From Patescibacteria group bacterium (lineage in GTDB: Bacteria > Patescibacteriota > Patescibacteriia > UBA10025 > JAHIVO01), in contig JBAZWB010000002.1 in the NCBI GenBank assembly GCA_041660605.1, positions 66,216 to 130,215 of the forward strand: a DNA stretch of 64,000 bases. Reading direction: 5' to 3'. Shown in pieces: positions 2,573 to 9,908 of this stretch. Positions within the stretch are counted from its first letter, which is position 1. Every line of letters begins with the position of its first letter. The notes below the pieces were generated by a model. It saw only the letters and a program-made list of their open reading frames with translations. It was not told where the DNA came from and did not search any database. The position numbers and the translations under genes were made by a program.

Positions 2573-3274
2573 TTATAAGCTATTAAATTCCTTTTCTATA
2601 TAATCTTTCTCCAGCGCGAGTTCCTGGGGAGCAAGCCCGCTTTCGCAAATAAATGGCACGTCTAAACCTTTAGCTGCTTTTATAATTTCAGTTTGCCTGG
2701 TTTTAAAGAGCGGGTAATGCACGTTCTCAGAGTCTAGCCCGCTGATATGAATTTCCGACAAACGCTCAGAAAATTCCTTTATAAAATCCGCGGCCAATTT
2801 CATGGTCGGATCATTGTCCCAGATATGATTCACATCCAGAATAAAGCGAAATAAAGTATTTAACGTAAGCAGCTTGGACAGATCCTCCGGCTTCTTCCCG
2901 AAATTCTTAGCCTTGTCCATATTTTCAAACCCCACGGGGAAAGGCAGGTCATCAAATATATCAATATCTATAACGTTATCCGGATGAATAACTACCACAT
3001 CCAGCGGCCGTAGCTTGTGCGTTTCGGAAATGGCCTGGAAGATTTTAAATGTTTCCTGATTATCGGCATAATCCATTCTGGGCGCGTGCAGGCTGACATA
3101 ATCAAAACCGGCCAAATCCTCCTCGGTAATGGCCGCCAACTCTCCGGCCTCAATGCGCTCTTTGCGCACAAAACCCAGCTCTACCGCCCGGCAGCCGATC
3201 TTTTTAAATTCAGCGATAGCCTGCTTGGGCTCCATATAATCATGCAAATCACCGGTAGAAAATCCAAATATCAT
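2573..3274 (-). CDS. TIM-barrel protein, sugar-phosphate isomerase/epimerase (xylose-isomerase-like) family, putative
   Basis: 233 aa; alternating beta/alpha pattern with conserved His/Asp/Glu positions; no specific motif recognised. Confidence 0.4.
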   Translation of the reverse strand: MIFGFSTGDLHDYMEPKQAIAEFKKIGCRAVELGFVRKERIEAGELAAITEEDLAGFDYVSLHAPRMDYADNQETFKIFQAISETHKLRPLDVVVIHPDNVIDIDIFDDLPFPVGFENMDKAKNFGKKPEDLSKLLTLNTLFRFILDVNHIWDNDPTMKLAADFIKEFSERLSEIHISGLDSENVHYPLFKTRQTEIIKAAKGLDVPFICESGLAPQELALEKDYIEKEFNSL

Positions 3275-3289
3275 AGGTGGTTGTTAGAT

Positions 3290-3375
3290 AATGGCGAATG
3301 GGTTATGGTTAAAAGCATGTGGTTAAATTACTATAAGCTATTAGCTATATGCTATTAGCCAACCGCTATACGCTA
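3290..3375. repeat. Short tandem ~7-nt repeat (NAGCTAT units, about 7 imperfect copies) in an intergenic region
   Basis: agctat tagctat atgctat tagcc aaccgctat acgctat aaactat gagcta seen directly. Confidence 0.5.
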
Positions 3376-3379
3376 TAAA

Positions 3380-4294
3380 CTATGAGCTAAACTTAAACCT
3401 AATAAATAAATCCGCGAAATATTTAAAATTATTCGCTATCTGTTCAACCGCCTGTTCGCGGGTAATCTTCTCTGATTTGAAATCCACCAGTGCCTGCCAA
3501 AAAACCGTCCTGCCGACCGCAAAACCGATGACCCCGTCCACCCTGGCGCCGGTCTCAATCCATTTTTCTACCAGCTCGCGGGTCTCGCCGCGTCCCAACA
3601 CGATCATGCAGACCTGCCCGCGCCGCCCCTTGCGCATCTGCTTGATGACGTCCTGGTAATTTTCCATTTCCTGAAATCCCTCAATTTTCCAGACATCCGG
3701 ATCCACTCCGCCTTTTTGCAATTCTTTGACCATTTTTATTGCCAGGTCCGGACGCATTTCCAGATTGTACCGGCGATGGTCGGCCTGCACTTTGTTCAGC
3801 TGGTCCACAGTCGGAGGCACCAGAACTTCTAGCATGAATTTATAACCGTGAGTGCGGCAATAATCGCTTAACTTTGCTAATCGCTGGCGCTGTCGTTCGT
3901 TTAATTCCTCATCTCCGCCGGGATTGTAGCGTAGTAAAGCTTTGGCAAACTGCGGCCGGTATTTATCCAGGTGTTCGCCGAATTGGTGGTTAAATTCAAA
4001 ATCAAATTCAGCCTGCCCGCTTTTTTCCGTGCACATGCAGACAATAAAACCAGCCTGTCTGGCTTGGCGCAAAATCAAATCACCGCACTGCTCGTCCACC
4101 AGTATGGCCGCGGATTCTTTCGGCACCCCGCGGCTGACGGCCAGAGCAAAACCTTCGTAGATTATCTGCTTGTATTCCGCCAGCTTGGCCACGCGTTCAA
4201 TGGTAAACAAATCCTCCCAGCCGAACATCTTTTCAGCAAAGCTTTGGCGGTGGTCAAATGGCAATATGTATAATGGTTTGTTATATCCGAGCAT
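3380..4294 (-). CDS. Aldolase-like TIM-barrel protein (DUF2090 / 5-keto-2-deoxy-phosphogluconate aldolase-like), putative
   Basis: 304 aa; N-terminal LYILPFDHRQSF resembles the DUF2090/IolC-C-terminal-type aldolase family; family call from memory only. Confidence 0.4.
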   Translation of the reverse strand: MLGYNKPLYILPFDHRQSFAEKMFGWEDLFTIERVAKLAEYKQIIYEGFALAVSRGVPKESAAILVDEQCGDLILRQARQAGFIVCMCTEKSGQAEFDFEFNHQFGEHLDKYRPQFAKALLRYNPGGDEELNERQRQRLAKLSDYCRTHGYKFMLEVLVPPTVDQLNKVQADHRRYNLEMRPDLAIKMVKELQKGGVDPDVWKIEGFQEMENYQDVIKQMRKGRRGQVCMIVLGRGETRELVEKWIETGARVDGVIGFAVGRTVFWQALVDFKSEKITREQAVEQIANNFKYFADLFIRFKFSS

Positions 4295-4367
4295 TTTTTA
4301 TGGATTAACTTGTGTGTTTATTATAGATTAAGAGGAGATATTTTCATAATTTAATATTATAATTGCC

Positions 4368-4943
4368 CTAAAATATCTCTATTAACGATTGTCTTACCAA
4401 AGTTCTGATTTGCTCATCCGAAAATTTTATTTGGCTATTCAGCTCCTTGGCTGTTGGCGAAAGCCTATTGTACATAAATTGGATTTTTTGCTTGGCTTTT
4501 TCCTCGCCATTTCTTTTCAGGTAAAAAGGAATATTATACTCAAAAAACGCCAGGCTATCAGCGTTCATTAAAACATTAATTTCTTCGCCGCCGCCGATTT
4601 CGTGATTTTCAATAAGATATCGGGTTTTATCAATAATTTTTTCTTCAAAATGGCATTCGCTCATTAACTCAGAAATGATCTTTGCAGAAACAAATGAATG
4701 TTGTTTCTTGTACTCATTGTAATCCTTAAAATCTTCTTTTTTTACTCTTCTTTCCGGAAAGCTCCTGTCAATATCATGCCCAAGAGCAGCCACCTGAAGC
4801 GCAATGTCAGCATTTGTCTTTAATTTCAAAACGTTTTTCCAGGTCAACTGCGAATGGACGTAATCTTCTTCTGCAACAGATTTCTTGGTTAGTTCTTCTA
4901 TCTTCTTCTTTACGATTTCAAATTTATCGTTTAAATATACCAT
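4368..4943 (-). CDS. HD-domain protein (putative metal-dependent phosphohydrolase)
   Basis: About 190 aa from internal Met (MVYLNDKF...), which abuts the Fic stop; H...HD motif (AALGHDIDR); the longest ORF would overlap Fic by about 40 nt. Confidence 0.5.
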   Translation of the reverse strand: MVYLNDKFEIVKKKIEELTKKSVAEEDYVHSQLTWKNVLKLKTNADIALQVAALGHDIDRSFPERRVKKEDFKDYNEYKKQHSFVSAKIISELMSECHFEEKIIDKTRYLIENHEIGGGEEINVLMNADSLAFFEYNIPFYLKRNGEEKAKQKIQFMYNRLSPTAKELNSQIKFSDEQIRTLVRQSLIEIF

Positions 4944-4944
4944 A

Positions 4945-6003
4945 TTATTTGTTGGGAATATAAATAGTTGCTTTACCTTTGCCAACCGATTTAATCATTC
5001 TAATTTTTTTCAGTCGCTGTAAATGCAATTGCGCCGTGCGCCGGGGGCAGTTTAACACCTCTTCCGCGTCCTTAACGGTCATACGGCTGACCTGATCCAA
5101 AAAATCAATAATTTTAAGCTGTTCAGGGCTTAAATATATTTGGGACTTAACCCTCGTACCTTTGGAACGCGCTGCCAAAGACAATATCCTTCCCTTAACG
5201 CGGTCAATTTCGTCTTTAAATCCGGTTATAAAATAATCCAGCCACGGCGTGCAGTCCTTTTGCCGTTCATCATAATTTTTACCCTGATTAATGGCTTTAT
5301 AATATGCCGGCCGGTCTGTATTATAATAATCTTCCAGAGCAAATAATCGGCGGAAGTCATACCCCCGCTGATACAAAATCAAGGTGGCCAGCGCTCTAGC
5401 CGTACGGCCATTGCCGTCTGTAAACGGATGTATCGCGGCAATTTCCAGATGCGCCACTGCCGCGACGATCACCGGATTAATCTGTTTTTTTTCGCTGTCT
5501 CTGAGCCAAGCCACAAAATTATTCATCAATTGTGGCACGCGCTTGGCTTCCGGGCCGGTGTACATTATTTGCGCCGGCAGACCGAGACGCCGTCGTACTA
5601 CGTAAATCGGCCCCGGGCGGTAGTGCCCGCTGGATCGCGGAGCCAGCGTATTGCTGGTAACCAGGTTATGAATTTTAAGTATAACTTTTTCACTTATCAA
5701 CTGGCGCTGCGCCACGACTTTTTCGATGTATTCCAGTGCTTTCAGATAATTTTTTACCTCATAAATATCGCGAGCCGGCGCGTCTATCTTCCTATGAGCA
5801 TAGAGCGCCTCTACTTGGGCGATGTCCAAACGGTTGCCTTCAATTTCCGTGGAATGGTGCGTCATGCGAATGACGGCCTGGCGGCGTAAACGCAATTCCT
5901 GCTGGGGCAATATCCGGGCATGCTCAATTACGGCTTTGGCTTCCGCAATAGCCGTCAAATCGCGCAAAATATTGTCGGATAAAGTATAGACGGGTTTAAA
6001 CAT
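4945..6003 (-). CDS. Fic/Doc family AMP-transferase-like protein with N-terminal inhibitory motif and C-terminal winged-helix domain
   Basis: 352 aa; canonical Fic motif HPFTDGNGRTARAL; SxxxEG inhibitory motif (STEIEG); basic C-terminal wHTH-like tail. Confidence 0.85.
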   Translation of the reverse strand: MFKPVYTLSDNILRDLTAIAEAKAVIEHARILPQQELRLRRQAVIRMTHHSTEIEGNRLDIAQVEALYAHRKIDAPARDIYEVKNYLKALEYIEKVVAQRQLISEKVILKIHNLVTSNTLAPRSSGHYRPGPIYVVRRRLGLPAQIMYTGPEAKRVPQLMNNFVAWLRDSEKKQINPVIVAAVAHLEIAAIHPFTDGNGRTARALATLILYQRGYDFRRLFALEDYYNTDRPAYYKAINQGKNYDERQKDCTPWLDYFITGFKDEIDRVKGRILSLAARSKGTRVKSQIYLSPEQLKIIDFLDQVSRMTVKDAEEVLNCPRRTAQLHLQRLKKIRMIKSVGKGKATIYIPNK

Positions 6004-6048
6004 ATATATTGGATGCTTTCTGTATGCAGTATATCATATAATCCCGAA

Positions 6049-6078
6049 TCGCGCAAGATACGCGCAACAATCGCGCAA
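6049..6078 (-). promoter_or_regulatory. Three direct repeats TTGCGCGA (minus-strand reading) spaced exactly 11 bp, immediately upstream of a TATATGAT -10-like box of the Fic-HD operon; putative operator
   Basis: aatcgcgcaagatacgcgcaacaatcgcgcaatatt; period 6049/6060/6071. Confidence 0.4.
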
Positions 6079-6104
6079 TATTATTTAAGTCAAAAATAAA
6101 AATT

Positions 6105-6167
6105 CTCGGCAAAGCTTTGGCGGTGGTCAAATGGCAGAATGTATAATGGCTTGTTATATCCGAGCAT
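6105..6167 (-). pseudogene. Duplicated 5' fragment (first 21 codons) of the aldolase-like gene at 3380..4294
   Basis: Translates MLGYNKPLYILPFDHRQSFAE then diverges to a stop; about 94% identical to 4231..4294; all 4 differences are synonymous. Confidence 0.6.
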
Positions 6168-6234
6168 TTTTATATTTAGTACTTACGCTGGTTATTATAT
6201 CAGATTTAAATATTTAACTATGCCTACAATTTGA

Positions 6235-6498
6235 TTACTTGCTATTCCTTCTTTTAAGATGATAAGAGATTTTGGTTAATAACTCCGAACCAAATCCAAT
6301 CAATGTTCCCACAACTGCAATTTTTCCAATTAAAGACCATTTAAATCCATTTCCAATCAAAAAAACAATAACCGCAACTATTAATCCAATAATAGCACCG
6401 ATTGAAAAACCTCCCCAAACTGCATTTTTCGTTTTAAAATATTTAATTAATAACAAGATTGAAATTACTGCGAGGATAATCCAAATAGTGTTCATCAT
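6235..6498 (-). CDS. Small membrane protein (two predicted TM helices), hypothetical
   Basis: 87 aa, strongly hydrophobic; lies in the more AT-rich block. Confidence 0.4.
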   Translation of the reverse strand: MMNTIWIILAVISILLLIKYFKTKNAVWGGFSIGAIIGLIVAVIVFLIGNGFKWSLIGKIAVVGTLIGFGSELLTKISYHLKRRNSK

Positions 6499-6515
6499 AA
6501 AAATTTAATTAATTT

Positions 6516-6713
6516 TTAGTTGATGTCTCCAAAATATTTTTTTCGTGCCTCATACCAATTTTTTTCTGCGTAGTTAAGTTCTTCGGATGCTTTTATTTCT
6601 TCCTTCGTCAACCATTCCTTGTTATTATTGAGAAATGGCATATAATTTTTTATTGCCTCCTTTAAGAAATTGACTGCCCGTTTATACTCCAATTCAAACT
6701 TAGTATTTAACAT
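6516..6713 (-). CDS. Hypothetical small protein
   Basis: 65 aa, charged/helical; no similarity recognised. Confidence 0.3.
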   Translation of the reverse strand: MLNTKFELEYKRAVNFLKEAIKNYMPFLNNNKEWLTKEEIKASEELNYAEKNWYEARKKYFGDIN

Positions 6714-6749
6714 ATACGATATACTTATTTAATATCCGTGAGCACTGTC

Positions 6750-6947
6750 TTATAGTTTATAAGTTACGATATCTGCGCAAACATTACTTAAGTTAAGATT
6801 TTTTTCTGTAATATTAATTAAGCAATCAGCTCTCTTTGATTCGGCATCAATTTCATTTTTATCTCGGAAGTATATATTTAAAGAAAAAACTAAAAATAAA
6901 CCTAATGCCAGTACTATTAACTGCCAAATGATGATTTCTTTTTTCAT
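6750..6947 (-). CDS. Hypothetical small protein with N-terminal TM/signal segment
   Basis: 65 aa; MKKEIIIWQLIVLALGLFLVF hydrophobic N-terminus. Confidence 0.3.
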   Translation of the reverse strand: MKKEIIIWQLIVLALGLFLVFSLNIYFRDKNEIDAESKRADCLINITEKNLNLSNVCADIVTYKL

Positions 6948-7024
6948 AAATTTTAATGGGAATTAACTAATGGGTAATGATATTACTTTACCGATATTCT
7001 CAATTTTATTGTGCTTCATATTGT

Positions 7025-7462
7025 TTAATTAAATTTATATTCATTAGGTAAATTTTTTTTAAATATTTTTGTTAATACAATAAAATCCAATAGGATGTCA
7101 ATATCCCATGACTTTTCCGGAGGTATACCACTAATTCTTTTATCTGTTAAATGCATAAGTTCATTGTCGATACGTTTCTGCAACTTTATTATCCGTGCTG
7201 TTTTTTTGGGTAGTAATTTTTCCCATTGTTTTGATTCAATAAAATCAATAGCCCTTATATATGATTTTCCATTCTTACGATAATAAAAAAATTCTAATAA
7301 ATTTCTTGCATGCAGTAGAAAACACTCCAATGCCATCTGAAGACTTTTTTGTTCTTGTTGTTTGAGACATTCAAATATTTTATTAAAAGAAAAATTGAGC
7401 ATATCGTCTTCATATGCGAAGTGTTCAATAAGCCATGCTTTTTTATCTGAATTCTGTAACAT
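7025..7462 (-). CDS. Hypothetical protein
   Basis: 145 aa; AT-rich codon usage differs from neighbours; no motif recognised. Confidence 0.35.
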   Translation of the reverse strand: MLQNSDKKAWLIEHFAYEDDMLNFSFNKIFECLKQQEQKSLQMALECFLLHARNLLEFFYYRKNGKSYIRAIDFIESKQWEKLLPKKTARIIKLQKRIDNELMHLTDKRISGIPPEKSWDIDILLDFIVLTKIFKKNLPNEYKFN

Positions 7463-7532
7463 TTTTATTTTATTAAAGTATGAAAAGTTTTAATAATAGT
7501 ATTTTTTGATATCCCCTCATAATCCAACAACC

Positions 7533-8069
7533 CTACTTACCTTTCTCAAATATTGAAGCAAAACGGGCTTCACTAATGATTTTCATCACCTCTTCAGGCG
7601 AAAAAACTTTTCCATTTATAGCAACGTAAATGCCAGGCTTAAGATGTTCAAGCTGCGCTACGGCATACCCCAGATTAAATGGCCCATCTGAGGGTGAAAA
7701 ACCGCTAATTGGAACGGCAGATGCCGTCAGAACTATTGTCTGATCATTTCGTTTAAGATTTGCTTTCAGGAAACGGGCAGTATCAGGCATGGTGTATGTG
7801 CCATGGGTAACAATTATTTCAGTATGCGCACTATTTTCAATGATTTTTAGAATATTATCTAAATCTTCGCGTTTCAAATCACGGCTGTCTTTCATGCAAA
7901 CGGTTGTAAACTCAGCGCCATGATAAATCTTTAAACCATTAATAAAAGATGGGATTACCGAAATTTCATTTGGGACAGCCGTGTCTTTGCTGGCATCATA
8001 ATGAGAATCAATTGTCCCGCCGGTAATTATAAAATGGATTGTGCTTTTTTGTTTGCTCATATTATTCAA
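7533..8069 (-). CDS. L-asparaginase N-terminal-domain-like protein (asparaginase/glutaminase family, stand-alone short form)
   Basis: 178 aa; IITGGTIDS threonine-nucleophile motif and THGTYTMPDTA block. Confidence 0.6.
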   Translation of the reverse strand: MNNMSKQKSTIHFIITGGTIDSHYDASKDTAVPNEISVIPSFINGLKIYHGAEFTTVCMKDSRDLKREDLDNILKIIENSAHTEIIVTHGTYTMPDTARFLKANLKRNDQTIVLTASAVPISGFSPSDGPFNLGYAVAQLEHLKPGIYVAINGKVFSPEEVMKIISEARFASIFEKGK

Positions 8070-8072
8070 TAT

Positions 8073-9908
8073 TTATCTATTATTTAAAGTTAACTTAATC
8101 GCCTTTATTATTCCACTTTTATCAATTCCTTCATAGCTTAATAGTTCTGCTGGTTTCCCACTTTTCGGCATTTTCGTCACTGCCAACTTAACCACGTGTG
8201 CCTTGGCATGCCTTAGCGCGCTCAACACCGCCTCTCCCAAGCCGCCTTGCGGATAATGATCCTCAACCGTAATAATGGCTTTTGTTTCTTTGGCCGCCTT
8301 TTGCAAAGTGGCGACATCAACCGGCTTGATGCTATATAAATCAATTACTCTAATATTAATTCCCTGCTTTTTTAATTCATCATAAGCTTTCAATGCCTCA
8401 AAAACCGTGATGCCGGCAGTAACCACAGTGGCCGTGTCATTCTGGCTTTGGCGCAAAACTTTGCTTCCGCCAATGGGGAATTGCTCATTCTGCTTGTAAA
8501 TAACCGGCGTCTCTGCCCGTGTCGTGCGCAGATAAACTATGCCTTTGTGCTTCACCATTTCCTCCACCATTTTATCGCAGGACACCGGGTCGCAAGGATA
8601 TAAAACCACGCTGTCTAAAACCGACCGGAACATGGCAATATCCTCAAGTCCCATTTGCGACGGGCCATCCTCGCCAATAGACACGCCGGCGTGCGAGCCG
8701 ACGAACTTGATGTTGGCTTGCGAATAGGCGCTCATCCTGATCTGGTCAAAAGCCCGTGTGAAAAACGCGGCAAAGGTGGAGACGAACGGGATCTTCCCGC
8801 GGCGCGATAAGCCAACGGCAGCGCCAACCATATTCTGCTCGGCAATAAACATTTCAAAAAATCTTTTGGGATAATTTTTCTGGAAAATTTCAGAATAAGT
8901 GGAGTTGCTGACTTCCGCGTCCAGCGAGACAATCGGATAATTATTAGCGAGCCGCGTCAGCGCGTAACCAAACGCCTTCCGGGTGGCTATCGGATTATTA
9001 AAAATCATTGGCTCTGGTTTGCCGGAAGTAAGCGGTGCCGGTTTGAAGGTTTTTGACAAAGCAATAGAGCCGCGCACCGACGTGTCTACTTTTCCCAAAT
9101 CTTTTAGGGCTTTTTCCAATTCATCAGGTTTTAATGCCTTGCCATGCCAGCCGTCTTTATTCTCTATTAACTTAACGCCTTTACCTTTGAGCGTTTTGGC
9201 AATAATCATTACCGGCCTCCCCTTAGATTTTAAAGCTTTCGCGAAAGCATTTAAAATTGCCGGCAATTTATGCCCGTCTATAACGATAGTCTGCCACCCA
9301 AAGGCTTTGATCCTCTTTTCATATTCCAAAACTTTATGGCCGTACATGGTCTCGCCTCTTTGGCCCAGGCGGTTAACATCCAAAATGCCAATCAAATTAT
9401 CCAGCTTGTAATGCGTTGCCAATTGAATGGCCTCCCAAACCTGGCCCTCGGCCATTTCGCTGTCGCCTAATAATACATAGGTTTTATACGGCAATTTATC
9501 TAAATACTTGGCATTTAAAGCTAAACCAACGCCGACTGACAGCCCCTGGCCGAGCGAACCGGTAGCCGCTTCGCAATACGGAAATGACATGACCGGATGG
9601 CCTTCTAAACGCGAACTAAACTTGCGTAAAGTCATTAACTCCTGCTCTGTTATGGCACCGGCTGCCGCCCATAACGAATAAAACAGCGGCGAGGCATGGC
9701 CTTTGGAAAATATCAACCGGTCGTTATTGGGATTGCTCGGGTCTTTGAAATCAAAATTAAAATTACCGCCAAATATCAGGCCAGTCATTATATCCGTGGC
9801 TGACAGCGAAGACGTCGGATGGCCGGAACCGGCCGCGCTGGTGGAACGCAAAATCCAGTAGCGTATCAATTTCGCCATTGCCGGTAAATTTTGTTTATTC
9901 TTAATCAT
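8073..9908 (-). CDS. tkt: Transketolase
   Basis: 611 aa; GHPTSSLSATD ThDP motif, GDSEMAEGQVWEA, full N/middle/C domains. Confidence 0.9.
   Translation of the reverse strand: MIKNKQNLPAMAKLIRYWILRSTSAAGSGHPTSSLSATDIMTGLIFGGNFNFDFKDPSNPNNDRLIFSKGHASPLFYSLWAAAGAITEQELMTLRKFSSRLEGHPVMSFPYCEAATGSLGQGLSVGVGLALNAKYLDKLPYKTYVLLGDSEMAEGQVWEAIQLATHYKLDNLIGILDVNRLGQRGETMYGHKVLEYEKRIKAFGWQTIVIDGHKLPAILNAFAKALKSKGRPVMIIAKTLKGKGVKLIENKDGWHGKALKPDELEKALKDLGKVDTSVRGSIALSKTFKPAPLTSGKPEPMIFNNPIATRKAFGYALTRLANNYPIVSLDAEVSNSTYSEIFQKNYPKRFFEMFIAEQNMVGAAVGLSRRGKIPFVSTFAAFFTRAFDQIRMSAYSQANIKFVGSHAGVSIGEDGPSQMGLEDIAMFRSVLDSVVLYPCDPVSCDKMVEEMVKHKGIVYLRTTRAETPVIYKQNEQFPIGGSKVLRQSQNDTATVVTAGITVFEALKAYDELKKQGINIRVIDLYSIKPVDVATLQKAAKETKAIITVEDHYPQGGLGEAVLSALRHAKAHVVKLAVTKMPKSGKPAELLSYEGIDKSGIIKAIKLTLNNR

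Follow-up and report, generated by a model that had tools for sequence, protein, structure and literature searches.

Origin of a duplicated gene start that flanks a Fic gene and its HD-domain neighbour in a Patescibacteria genome

How did the 5' end of one gene come to stand on both sides of two others? The question is raised by a 64,000-nucleotide stretch of DNA (hereafter designated the window), part of a 960-kb Patescibacteria contig and represented by 100% identical DNA in three other assemblies, in which the start of an aldolase-like gene of the DUF2090 family recurs beyond a Fic gene and an HD-superfamily gene of the DUF4202 family (Fic and HD below). An earlier note on this DNA had taken the distal fragment for the remainder of a paralogue whose body was replaced, and had suggested that Fic and HD are cognate partners. 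Our reading is instead that the repeat is a recombination scar, left when one-sided homologous integration, in its simplest form a single crossover with a circular fragment, united two diverged haplotypes; this is probably, though by no means certainly, how the locus arose.

Two copies of a gene start and their silent divergence

The repeat and the three genes around it are as follows.

3380..4294, minus strand: intact DUF2090 (aldolase-like) gene, 304 aa (open reading frame (ORF); Pfam DUF2090, E 5.5e-31)
4230..4325, minus strand: repeat copy A, with the TATAAT box, 5' untranslated region (UTR) and codons 1–22 of the intact DUF2090 gene
4368..4943, minus strand: HD-superfamily gene (DUF4202), 191 aa, GC 35% (Pfam DUF4202 and HD)
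4945..6003, minus strand: class II Fic protein with a predicted C-terminal winged helix-turn-helix (wHTH) region, SoFic-like, 352 aa (Pfam Fic, E 5e-19)
6103..6199, minus strand: repeat copy B, with a TATAAT box, a diverged 5'UTR and 21 codons left over from a second DUF2090 allele

A repeat search of this region returned a single family, 69 nt long without gaps and 93% identical (4230–4298 and 6103–6171, spacing 1873), which gapped local alignment lengthens to ~96 nt at ~86% identity (4230–4325 versus 6103–6199). Both copies start with the hexamer TATAAT, which in copy A belongs to a promoter-like site at 4325–4320, and continue through a 5'UTR of ~30 nt and an ATG into 21 codons, those of copy A being the first 21 codons of the intact DUF2090 gene. 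The 28-nt core of the repeat occurs twice in the 64-kb window, once in each copy, against a shuffle expectation of 0.00. As the earlier note had read it, copy B still encodes MLGYNKPLYILPFDHRQSFAE, after which the translation runs into NFYF and a stop (25-codon ORF, 6090–6167, minus strand), ~24 nt ahead of the Fic operator and promoter; homology between the copies ends at codon 22 (AAG/AAT, K/N). The remnant presumably has no function of its own. An Rfam scan of window positions 3000–8000 at E <= 1 gave no match to known leaders or riboswitches, and besides the intact gene no second copy of DUF2090 was found in the 64-kb window.

Among the 21 codons shared by the two copies, five differ (AAA/AAG, ATA/ATT, TTG/CTG, GCT/GCC and GAA/GAG), and all five are synonymous. 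The imperfect repeat and the synonymous-only changes described in the earlier note were thus seen again, whereas its count of four differences, all at third positions, has to be amended to five, with TTG/CTG differing at the first codon position. When five random substitutions were placed on the 63 nt as a model of neutral decay of one copy, the peptide remained unchanged in 1.5e-4 to 1e-3 of the trials, the range depending on the transition bias; by our own estimate from the simulated synonymous fraction, p rises to ~0.006 once silent drift of the intact copy is allowed for as well. The 5/5 silent differences indicate that the gene copy from which the distal fragment derives diverged under purifying selection. 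Moreover, the ~30-nt 5'UTR contains three indels between the copies and has diverged several times as far as the coding part, and such a diverged leader ahead of a conserved coding part points to two functional genes diverging from each other and not to a dead copy decaying in place. These results support the view, already put forward in the earlier note, that the distal fragment stems from a once-functional gene copy and not from a simple target-site duplication.

Two further features were observed around the intact gene. Between the HD stop and copy A (4326–4367), there is a 10-bp inverted repeat (GAGATATTTT ... AAAATATCTC), which possibly terminates HD transcription shortly before the promoter-like TATAAT of DUF2090. 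In the intergenic region past the DUF2090 stop (3331–3386), a 14-nt unit (CTATAAGCTATTAG and variants) is present in three copies.

The site in relatives and similar scars at other Fic loci

All genes around the repeat are on the minus strand, in the order transketolase (9908–8073), asparaginase-N-like gene (8069–7533), four small ORFs (7462–6235), the 25-codon ORF (6167–6090), Fic, HD and DUF2090. The ancestral state of this order was judged from the nearest other DUF2090 homologue, which is 58% identical in protein sequence among 5.8 billion proteins and is encoded at the syntenic loci L174/L175. There, inositol phosphatase, DNA-alkylation repair, histidine phosphatase, RpiB, RPE and transketolase lead up to DUF2090, and the synteny goes on past it through polyprenyl synthase, UppS, M50 peptidase, S12, S7 and EF-G; protein identity to the window is 67% for transketolase and 80% for UppS. 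The ATG of the one DUF2090 gene in L174/L175 overlaps the transketolase stop (TAATG), and the site contains no second DUF2090, no Fic, no HD and none of the 3.8-kb insert. Since the single DUF2090 of this relative abuts transketolase, window positions 4295–8072 represent a lineage-specific insertion region, and a tandem paralogue was not the ancestral state. Indeed, no tandem DUF2090 pair was found in related genomes, L174/L175 and L176/L177 each being single-copy, so that the intact tandem pair of aldolase-like genes, for which the earlier note had proposed to compare relatives at this site, did not appear.

4295..8072, minus strand: lineage-specific insertion region between transketolase (8073–9908) and DUF2090 (comparison with L174/L175)
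6200..7500, minus strand: AT-rich island, GC 26–31% (neighbouring genes ~47%), with four small ORFs (composition)

The insertion region contains the asparaginase-N-like gene (7533–8069), the AT-rich island, remnant B, Fic and HD. No recombinase, transposase or integrase domain was detected in any of its ORFs with Pfam, PHROGs, PADLOC and NCBIfam, and the repeat search found no terminal inverted repeats at the ends of the insert. A transposon or insertion sequence was rejected on these two grounds, and also because the duplication is ~96 nt long at ~86% identity and not short and identical. The ORFs of the AT-rich island (87, 65, 65 and 145 aa) gave one weak match to a PHROG of unknown function and none to Pfam, PADLOC or characterised families; the island is absent from the syntenic relative L174.

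We found that scars of the same kind recur at other Fic loci. At 59 testable loci, the sequence preceding the Fic promoter was compared with that following Fic, and 156 other genes of at least 250 aa from the same loci served as controls. Flanking direct repeats were present at 14 of the 59 Fic loci but at only 9 of the 156 controls (Fisher p = 3.8e-4), and duplications of gene or RNA ends, 57–203 nt long at the Fic loci, at six of the 59 but at none of the 156 (p = 3.5e-4). Terminator hairpins or genome-wide repeat elements (L029, L014, L066, L063 and L007) were not counted as scars. The six duplications are the following.

Window: 5' end of DUF2090; passenger, HD
L064: 5' end of an S49 peptidase gene; passenger, a SET-domain gene
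L013: last 52 codons of an amino-acid permease gene, convergent; no passenger
L022: last 19 codons of an AMMECR1/Memo gene, remnant downstream; no passenger
L042: PEP-utilisers domain; passengers, two genes
L056: 16S rRNA 3' terminus and spacer; passenger, an LCAT-like lipase gene

Two of these carry the same synonymous bias as the window. In L064, where the order is 5' remnant of the S49 peptidase gene, Fic, SET-domain passenger and intact peptidase gene, the 19 codons differ at five nucleotides, all silent and including an AGT/TCA serine (p = 7e-5 to 8e-4). In L013, a single amino-acid change accompanies seven nucleotide differences, and both copies retain a stop codon, TAA in one and TGA in the other (p ~1e-3). 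For the L013 permease, a third haplotype (L181) was found in JGI contigs from the same aquifer, in which the permease end occurs once and Fic is absent; its agreement with the L013 remnant and with the intact copy is 155/163 nt in each case, which indicates that diverged alleles with and without Fic coexist in that aquifer. L042 is taken with caution, as true paralogues may be involved, and L033 likewise, because of a second Fic-like gene. No core shared among the repeats of different loci was found.

At L056 (1–6160), the Fic unit and the LCAT-like lipase gene lie just downstream of a 16S rRNA gene, and the 185-nt duplication (80%) starts 11 nt ahead of the 16S 3' end (TCACCTCCTTT). The 16S gene itself is interrupted, with an Rfam match to group II intron D1–D4 at 851–931.

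Some observations concern the neighbours of the insert. The asparaginase-N-like protein (175–178 aa) consists of the asparaginase N-terminal domain alone and adjoins the AT-rich stretch; the start of its gene overlaps the transketolase stop, the position held by DUF2090 in L174. DUF2090 itself follows transketolase in L174 (5166–7924) and GlpX, a fructose-bisphosphatase, in L176 (6025–7897). In L006, with a transketolase 73% identical to that of the window, the same position is occupied by two AT-rich ORFs, GlpX, HD and a class II fructose-bisphosphate (FBP) aldolase, the last filling the slot after GlpX–HD (3541–5890). The DUF2090 protein gives a weak match to DeoC in Pfam and weak matches to aldolase families in NCBIfam. 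Its slot after GlpX or transketolase, filled in L006 by the class II FBP aldolase, suggests that DUF2090 is a sugar-bisphosphate aldolase of these reduced genomes, subject to non-orthologous displacement.

Recombination between haplotypes and its rivals

In the reading that we prefer, both repeats would be the same promoter and 5' region of one single-copy gene, derived from two haplotypes of closely related bacteria, of which one would have had the AT-rich island ahead of the promoter and DUF2090, and the other Fic and HD ahead of the same promoter and gene. The present sequence would follow the first haplotype up to codon 22 of DUF2090 and then pass through a non-homologous joint into the second, ~24 nt upstream of the Fic operator, to continue through Fic, HD, the promoter and the intact gene. 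The simplest route would be a single RecA-type crossover between the chromosome and a circular fragment carrying Fic–HD and ~100 bp of the DUF2090 5' region, as the segment duplicated in such a crossover would be precisely the shared homology; a comparable one-sided event facilitated by homology could also have led to this arrangement. In Escherichia coli, substrates with one-sided homology were integrated mostly by a single crossover of circular molecules, with duplications of 109–950 bp and not the expected deletions (PMC3240628). The scars described here (57–203 nt) resemble those of single-crossover (Campbell-type) or one-sided integration in that the insert is bounded by a duplicated homologous segment, that no element-encoded recombinase is needed, and that donor and recipient alleles are combined in the copies. 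Unlike in those experiments, however, we are dealing with a natural event in an uncultivated Patescibacteria genome, with homology of ~96 nt at ~86%, a presumed circular intermediate, and a scar that recurs preferentially beside one gene family.

Several points weigh against this reading. The silent-only argument rests on five differences, with the value of only ~0.006 given above if the intact copy also drifts. The pattern is not present in every scar, as the L022 remnant differs mostly by amino-acid replacements, and about three quarters of the Fic loci lack a flanking repeat. The left breakpoint lies 3–57 nt from the operator in six loci, which hints at something beyond random breakage; selection for a compact functional unit could be responsible, or something specific to the operator. 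As to the parental haplotypes, all contigs with an identical DUF2090 or Fic protein have DNA 100% identical to the window, with no polymorphism, and the four of four with an identical DUF2090 protein carry the same arrangement, with no excision or empty site seen; a scan of genome contigs with the DUF2090 protein yielded no relatives, exact search of JGI metagenome contigs with the 28-mer core gave no match, and no genome was found close enough to display either parental haplotype, the next DUF2090 being 58% identical. Finally, the newcomer could be either Fic–HD or the AT-rich island.

The last point leads to a rival that is about as simple as the single crossover. A linear fragment, anchored by homology in the transketolase or asparaginase-like gene and ending 22 codons into the donor DUF2090, might have brought in the AT-rich island, its free end being joined illegitimately just upstream of a resident Fic–HD–DUF2090, so that the remnant would be the trailing end of the incoming DNA. 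This would be classical homology-facilitated illegitimate recombination, on which work has reportedly been done in Acinetobacter and pneumococcus. One anchor and one illegitimate joint would suffice, the silent-only divergence is explained equally well, the island is compositionally foreign (GC 26–31%) while the GC content at third codon positions (GC3) of Fic is host-like (0.51 versus 0.52–0.62), and HD is syntenic with its closest relative in L006. Left unexplained, however, are the enrichment of scars at Fic over other genes in the 59-locus survey and the breakpoints that hug Fic on both sides in the minimal units L013 and L022; in L022, the flanking repeat begins 9 nt past the Fic stop. 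We regard an incoming island as rather unlikely. Unlikely, too, is a more active role for the Patescibacteria Fic unit itself, in which operator, promoter and a toxic, self-inhibited Fic gene would form a recombinase-free selfish cassette that loops out via its flanking repeats and re-enters at the copied gene end through the host's homologous recombination. Neighbours such as HD would then sometimes be dragged along, and the tightly bound triple operator might create a recurrent left breakpoint, for example by stalled replication.

The remaining rivals place the duplication at the site itself or in the hands of an enzyme. If the insertion of Fic–HD had copied ~100 bp of its target, through staggered breaks or template switching, and the upstream copy had then decayed, direct target repeats would bound the insert as in a target-site duplication, the amino-acid changes that dominate the L022 remnant would be as predicted, and the tandem operator, which adjoins several of the breakpoints, could be the cause of stalled replication. 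Such decay is, however, at odds with the 5/5 silent coding differences and the same bias in L013 and L064, with the retained TAA/TGA stop of L013, and with a UTR several-fold more diverged than the coding part, and neither a transposase nor terminal inverted repeats accompany the insert; in-place duplication is accordingly improbable in our judgement. Movement of the Fic unit by a site-specific recombinase encoded elsewhere, which would insert it into gene ends and supply a replacement end, appears very improbable. In phage 21 and e14, which integrate in icd, and in tRNA-targeting islands, the insert carries a substitute gene end and is integrated by a tyrosine integrase at a fixed att core. 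The window resembles them in that the target gene stays intact beside a displaced pseudo-end with mainly silent differences; the imperfect direct repeats at both ends, the proximal copy restoring the target ORF with silent differences only, and the left boundary within 3–57 nt of the operator in six loci would all fit. In contrast to phage 21 and e14, no recombinase is present at the window insert, with no integrase in or beside it, and the duplicated sequences vary from locus to locus, with no core in common; moreover, the targets, which comprise 5' ends as well as 3' ends and an rRNA spacer, are unrelated, and the viral contigs contain no close relatives of Fic, the best being 37% identical.

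We give least credence to the paralogue of the earlier note, that is, an older upstream copy of the aldolase-like gene whose body was replaced by the Fic–HD segment, even though, as this model would have it, the remnant keeps a promoter-like TATAAT box and a start codon, followed by 21 codons in which all changes are silent. The syntenic relative has one copy, its start overlapping the transketolase stop; the 64-kb window has no second one, and the other DUF2090 contexts are single genes. In addition, the 93% nucleotide identity between the copies, compared with 58% protein identity to the nearest database homologue, points to an allele of the same gene, and at other Fic loci the same scar involves three unrelated genes. 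The recurrence with unrelated genes, together with the synonymous bias in L013 and L064, argues for recombination between diverged alleles over repeated loss of tandem paralogues in genomes of ~1 Mb.

The Fic unit, its operator and the HD neighbour

The Fic gene is preceded by a conspicuous promoter.

6028..6078, minus strand: Fic promoter, three tandem 11-bp units (TTGCGCGATTG, TTGCGCGTATC and TTGCGCGATTC) followed by a −10-like TATACT (sequence)

The Fic protein has the catalytic motif HPFTDGNGRTAR at residues 192–203 (HxFx(D/E)GNGRxxR type), of which H192, F194, D196, G197, N198, G199, R200 and R203 are invariant in 27 homologues, and the N-terminal inhibitory motif STEIEGN (S51-T-E-I-E55-G56-N57), all of whose residues are invariant in the homologue alignment. 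With 19.9 bits, Pfam Fic_N matches only weakly and below its cut-off, and the matches of the C-terminal HTH region likewise fall below theirs (Pfam HTH_20, E 0.0021; NCBIfam ArsR-type HTH, E 1e-4). The PADLOC SoFic model matches at E 7.4e-58 over 322 of 361 profile positions, and the Protein Data Bank (PDB) matches are Fic–wHTH proteins including SoFic, residues 144–349 aligning to SoFic chains. The assignment in the earlier note to class II Fic proteins with an inhibitory motif and a C-terminal wHTH thus stands, although the HTH profile matches lie below their cut-offs. In its Fic motif, N-terminal inhibitory S/TxxxE(G/N) helix and putative C-terminal wHTH, the protein resembles the SoFic/CccR/CbFic2 group, from which it differs by belonging to a clade confined to Patescibacteria, 72–80% conserved, with a triple 11-bp TTGCGCG operator; against the NCBIfam SoFic equivalog, it scores 77 bits with a cut-off of 550. 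Homologues 72–80% identical are found in Magasanikbacteria, Uhrbacteria, Moranbacteria, Falkowbacteria, Buchananbacteria and others, a conservation far above that of the neighbouring housekeeping genes (40–80% versus syntenic relatives). Fic as a compositionally foreign gene was rejected, since its GC3 matches the host. A scan of viral contigs, with the 37% relative mentioned above as the best, provided no evidence for a phage vector.

The operator, composed of TTGCGCGAWTC units, is unique in the window (6050–6078). Its units have the 11-nt helical spacing, overlap the −35 position and directly precede the −10 box. At least two such units at 11-nt spacing stand upstream of Fic in 71 of 78 loci, 59 of which have three, compared with three matches elsewhere, within 754 kb of DNA flanking the loci. 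In published work, SoFic was found to bind the 100 bp immediately ahead of its own gene and to act on EF-Tu as AMPylase as well as de-AMPylase (bioRxiv 10.64898/2026.07.09.737422), and CbFic2 is switched by DNA binding via its C-terminal HTH (PMC10628234). By the precedent of SoFic and CccR, the Fic wHTH probably binds the three TTGCGCG repeats at its own promoter, and Fic would be a self-contained autoregulated unit, a putative class II AMP-transferase with its own inhibitory helix. The SoFic-like group includes a toxic abortive-infection defence protein, and a defence role of the window Fic is putative by analogy. E. coli Sofic, toxic and defensive, is countered by AS1, a 47-aa protein encoded downstream (PMC12249575); unlike there, no AS1-like small antitoxin gene was found downstream of the window Fic, where the next gene is the 191-aa HD.

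Some further observations bear on the operator. The unit variant follows the Fic subclade (L005–L088), with GAATC in the group of 70–74% and GATTMT in that of 57–65%. A fourth operator-like unit (TTGCGCGATTT) lies on the minus strand at 5958–5971, within the coding sequence of Fic, ~35 nt past its ATG; it is also present in L005 and absent in L007, and could have arisen by chance from the ILRDL codons or be an extra predicted binding site. Three independent Logan contigs (L003, L005 and L008) break off within the operator, 72–85 nt ahead of the Fic start; 35 bases of the operator are identical between L005 and the window, although the proteins are only 80% identical. Probably, the shared operator breaks assembly graphs where several Fic-bearing genomes coexist.

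As the earlier note had observed, HD is translationally abutted to Fic, with one base between the Fic stop (4945–4947) and the HD start (4943–4941), TAA-T-ATG. Its Pfam matches are DUF4202 (75.1 bits, cut-off 35.1) and HD (22.9 bits, cut-off 22), and H30, H56-D57, H82, H114 and D129 are invariant in 43 homologues. An AlphaFold2 model (pLDDT 95.7, pTM 0.91) has YpgQ, SE1688, Lin1889 and HDDC2 as its top Foldseek matches (probability 1.0, TM ~0.6). HD shares with the YpgQ-type nucleotide pyrophosphohydrolases the length of ~190 residues, the all-helical HD fold and the H...HD...H...H...D ligands, at 13–17% sequence identity and TM ~0.6, values that set it apart from them; a small YpgQ-like nucleotide phosphohydrolase is thus plausible from the model, and with it the nucleotide-hydrolysing role that the earlier note had considered. 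DUF4202 is a family without a characterised member, and no mention of it was found in the literature searched.

A cognate Fic–HD pair, as suggested in the earlier note, is not borne out by the gene neighbourhoods. DUF4202 occurs within 6 kb of Fic in one of 80 reference loci (L060, divergent), and four DUF4202 contexts have no Fic; in L007, it stands upstream on the same strand, so that the three adjacencies (window, L007 and L060) have three different arrangements. Three adjacencies exceed chance for two rare genes, and they fit co-location in variable regions, not an operon. The closest HD homologue (77%, L006) is near transketolase, between GlpX and the aldolase, with no Fic, and HD as a co-imported partner of Fic was rejected because this homologue stands at the syntenic position. 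In base composition, which the earlier note had proposed to compare with the host, Fic is host-like in GC3, and the GC of HD is low, 35% in the window and equally so (37%) in L006. Since class II Fic–wHTH enzymes reverse their own AMPylation (PMC10628234; bioRxiv 10.64898/2026.07.09.737422), a separate de-AMPylase is unneeded, and the idea of HD as such an enzyme has no support. Judging by gene order, HD is a passenger or resident neighbour, predicted to be co-transcribed with Fic here, and not a cognate or obligate partner. Another DUF4202 homologue was seen in L090 (4332–7495), among small accessory genes (a HigB/HigA-like pair, a ParE/Phd pair, NUDIX and MazG), a cluster consistent with DUF4202 as a gene of variable regions.

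Collectively, the locus is a new example of known processes, in which an odd repeat becomes explicable as a scar of recombination between diverged strains, and a suggested new Fic/HD pair for modification and demodification is removed. Candidate-phyla-radiation bacteria have genomes of ~1 Mb with few classical mobile elements and are presumed to rely on DNA uptake. Scars that contain a piece of a second functional allele would record the entry of accessory genes into such tiny genomes, here of a gene that resembles SoFic and putatively serves as a defence or toxin gene. With 72–80% identity across classes and a nearly invariant triple 11-bp operator, the Fic clade provides a testable handle on Fic autoregulation, and the recurrent recombinase-free scars around this conserved, operator-bearing Fic gene of Patescibacteria merit follow-up.

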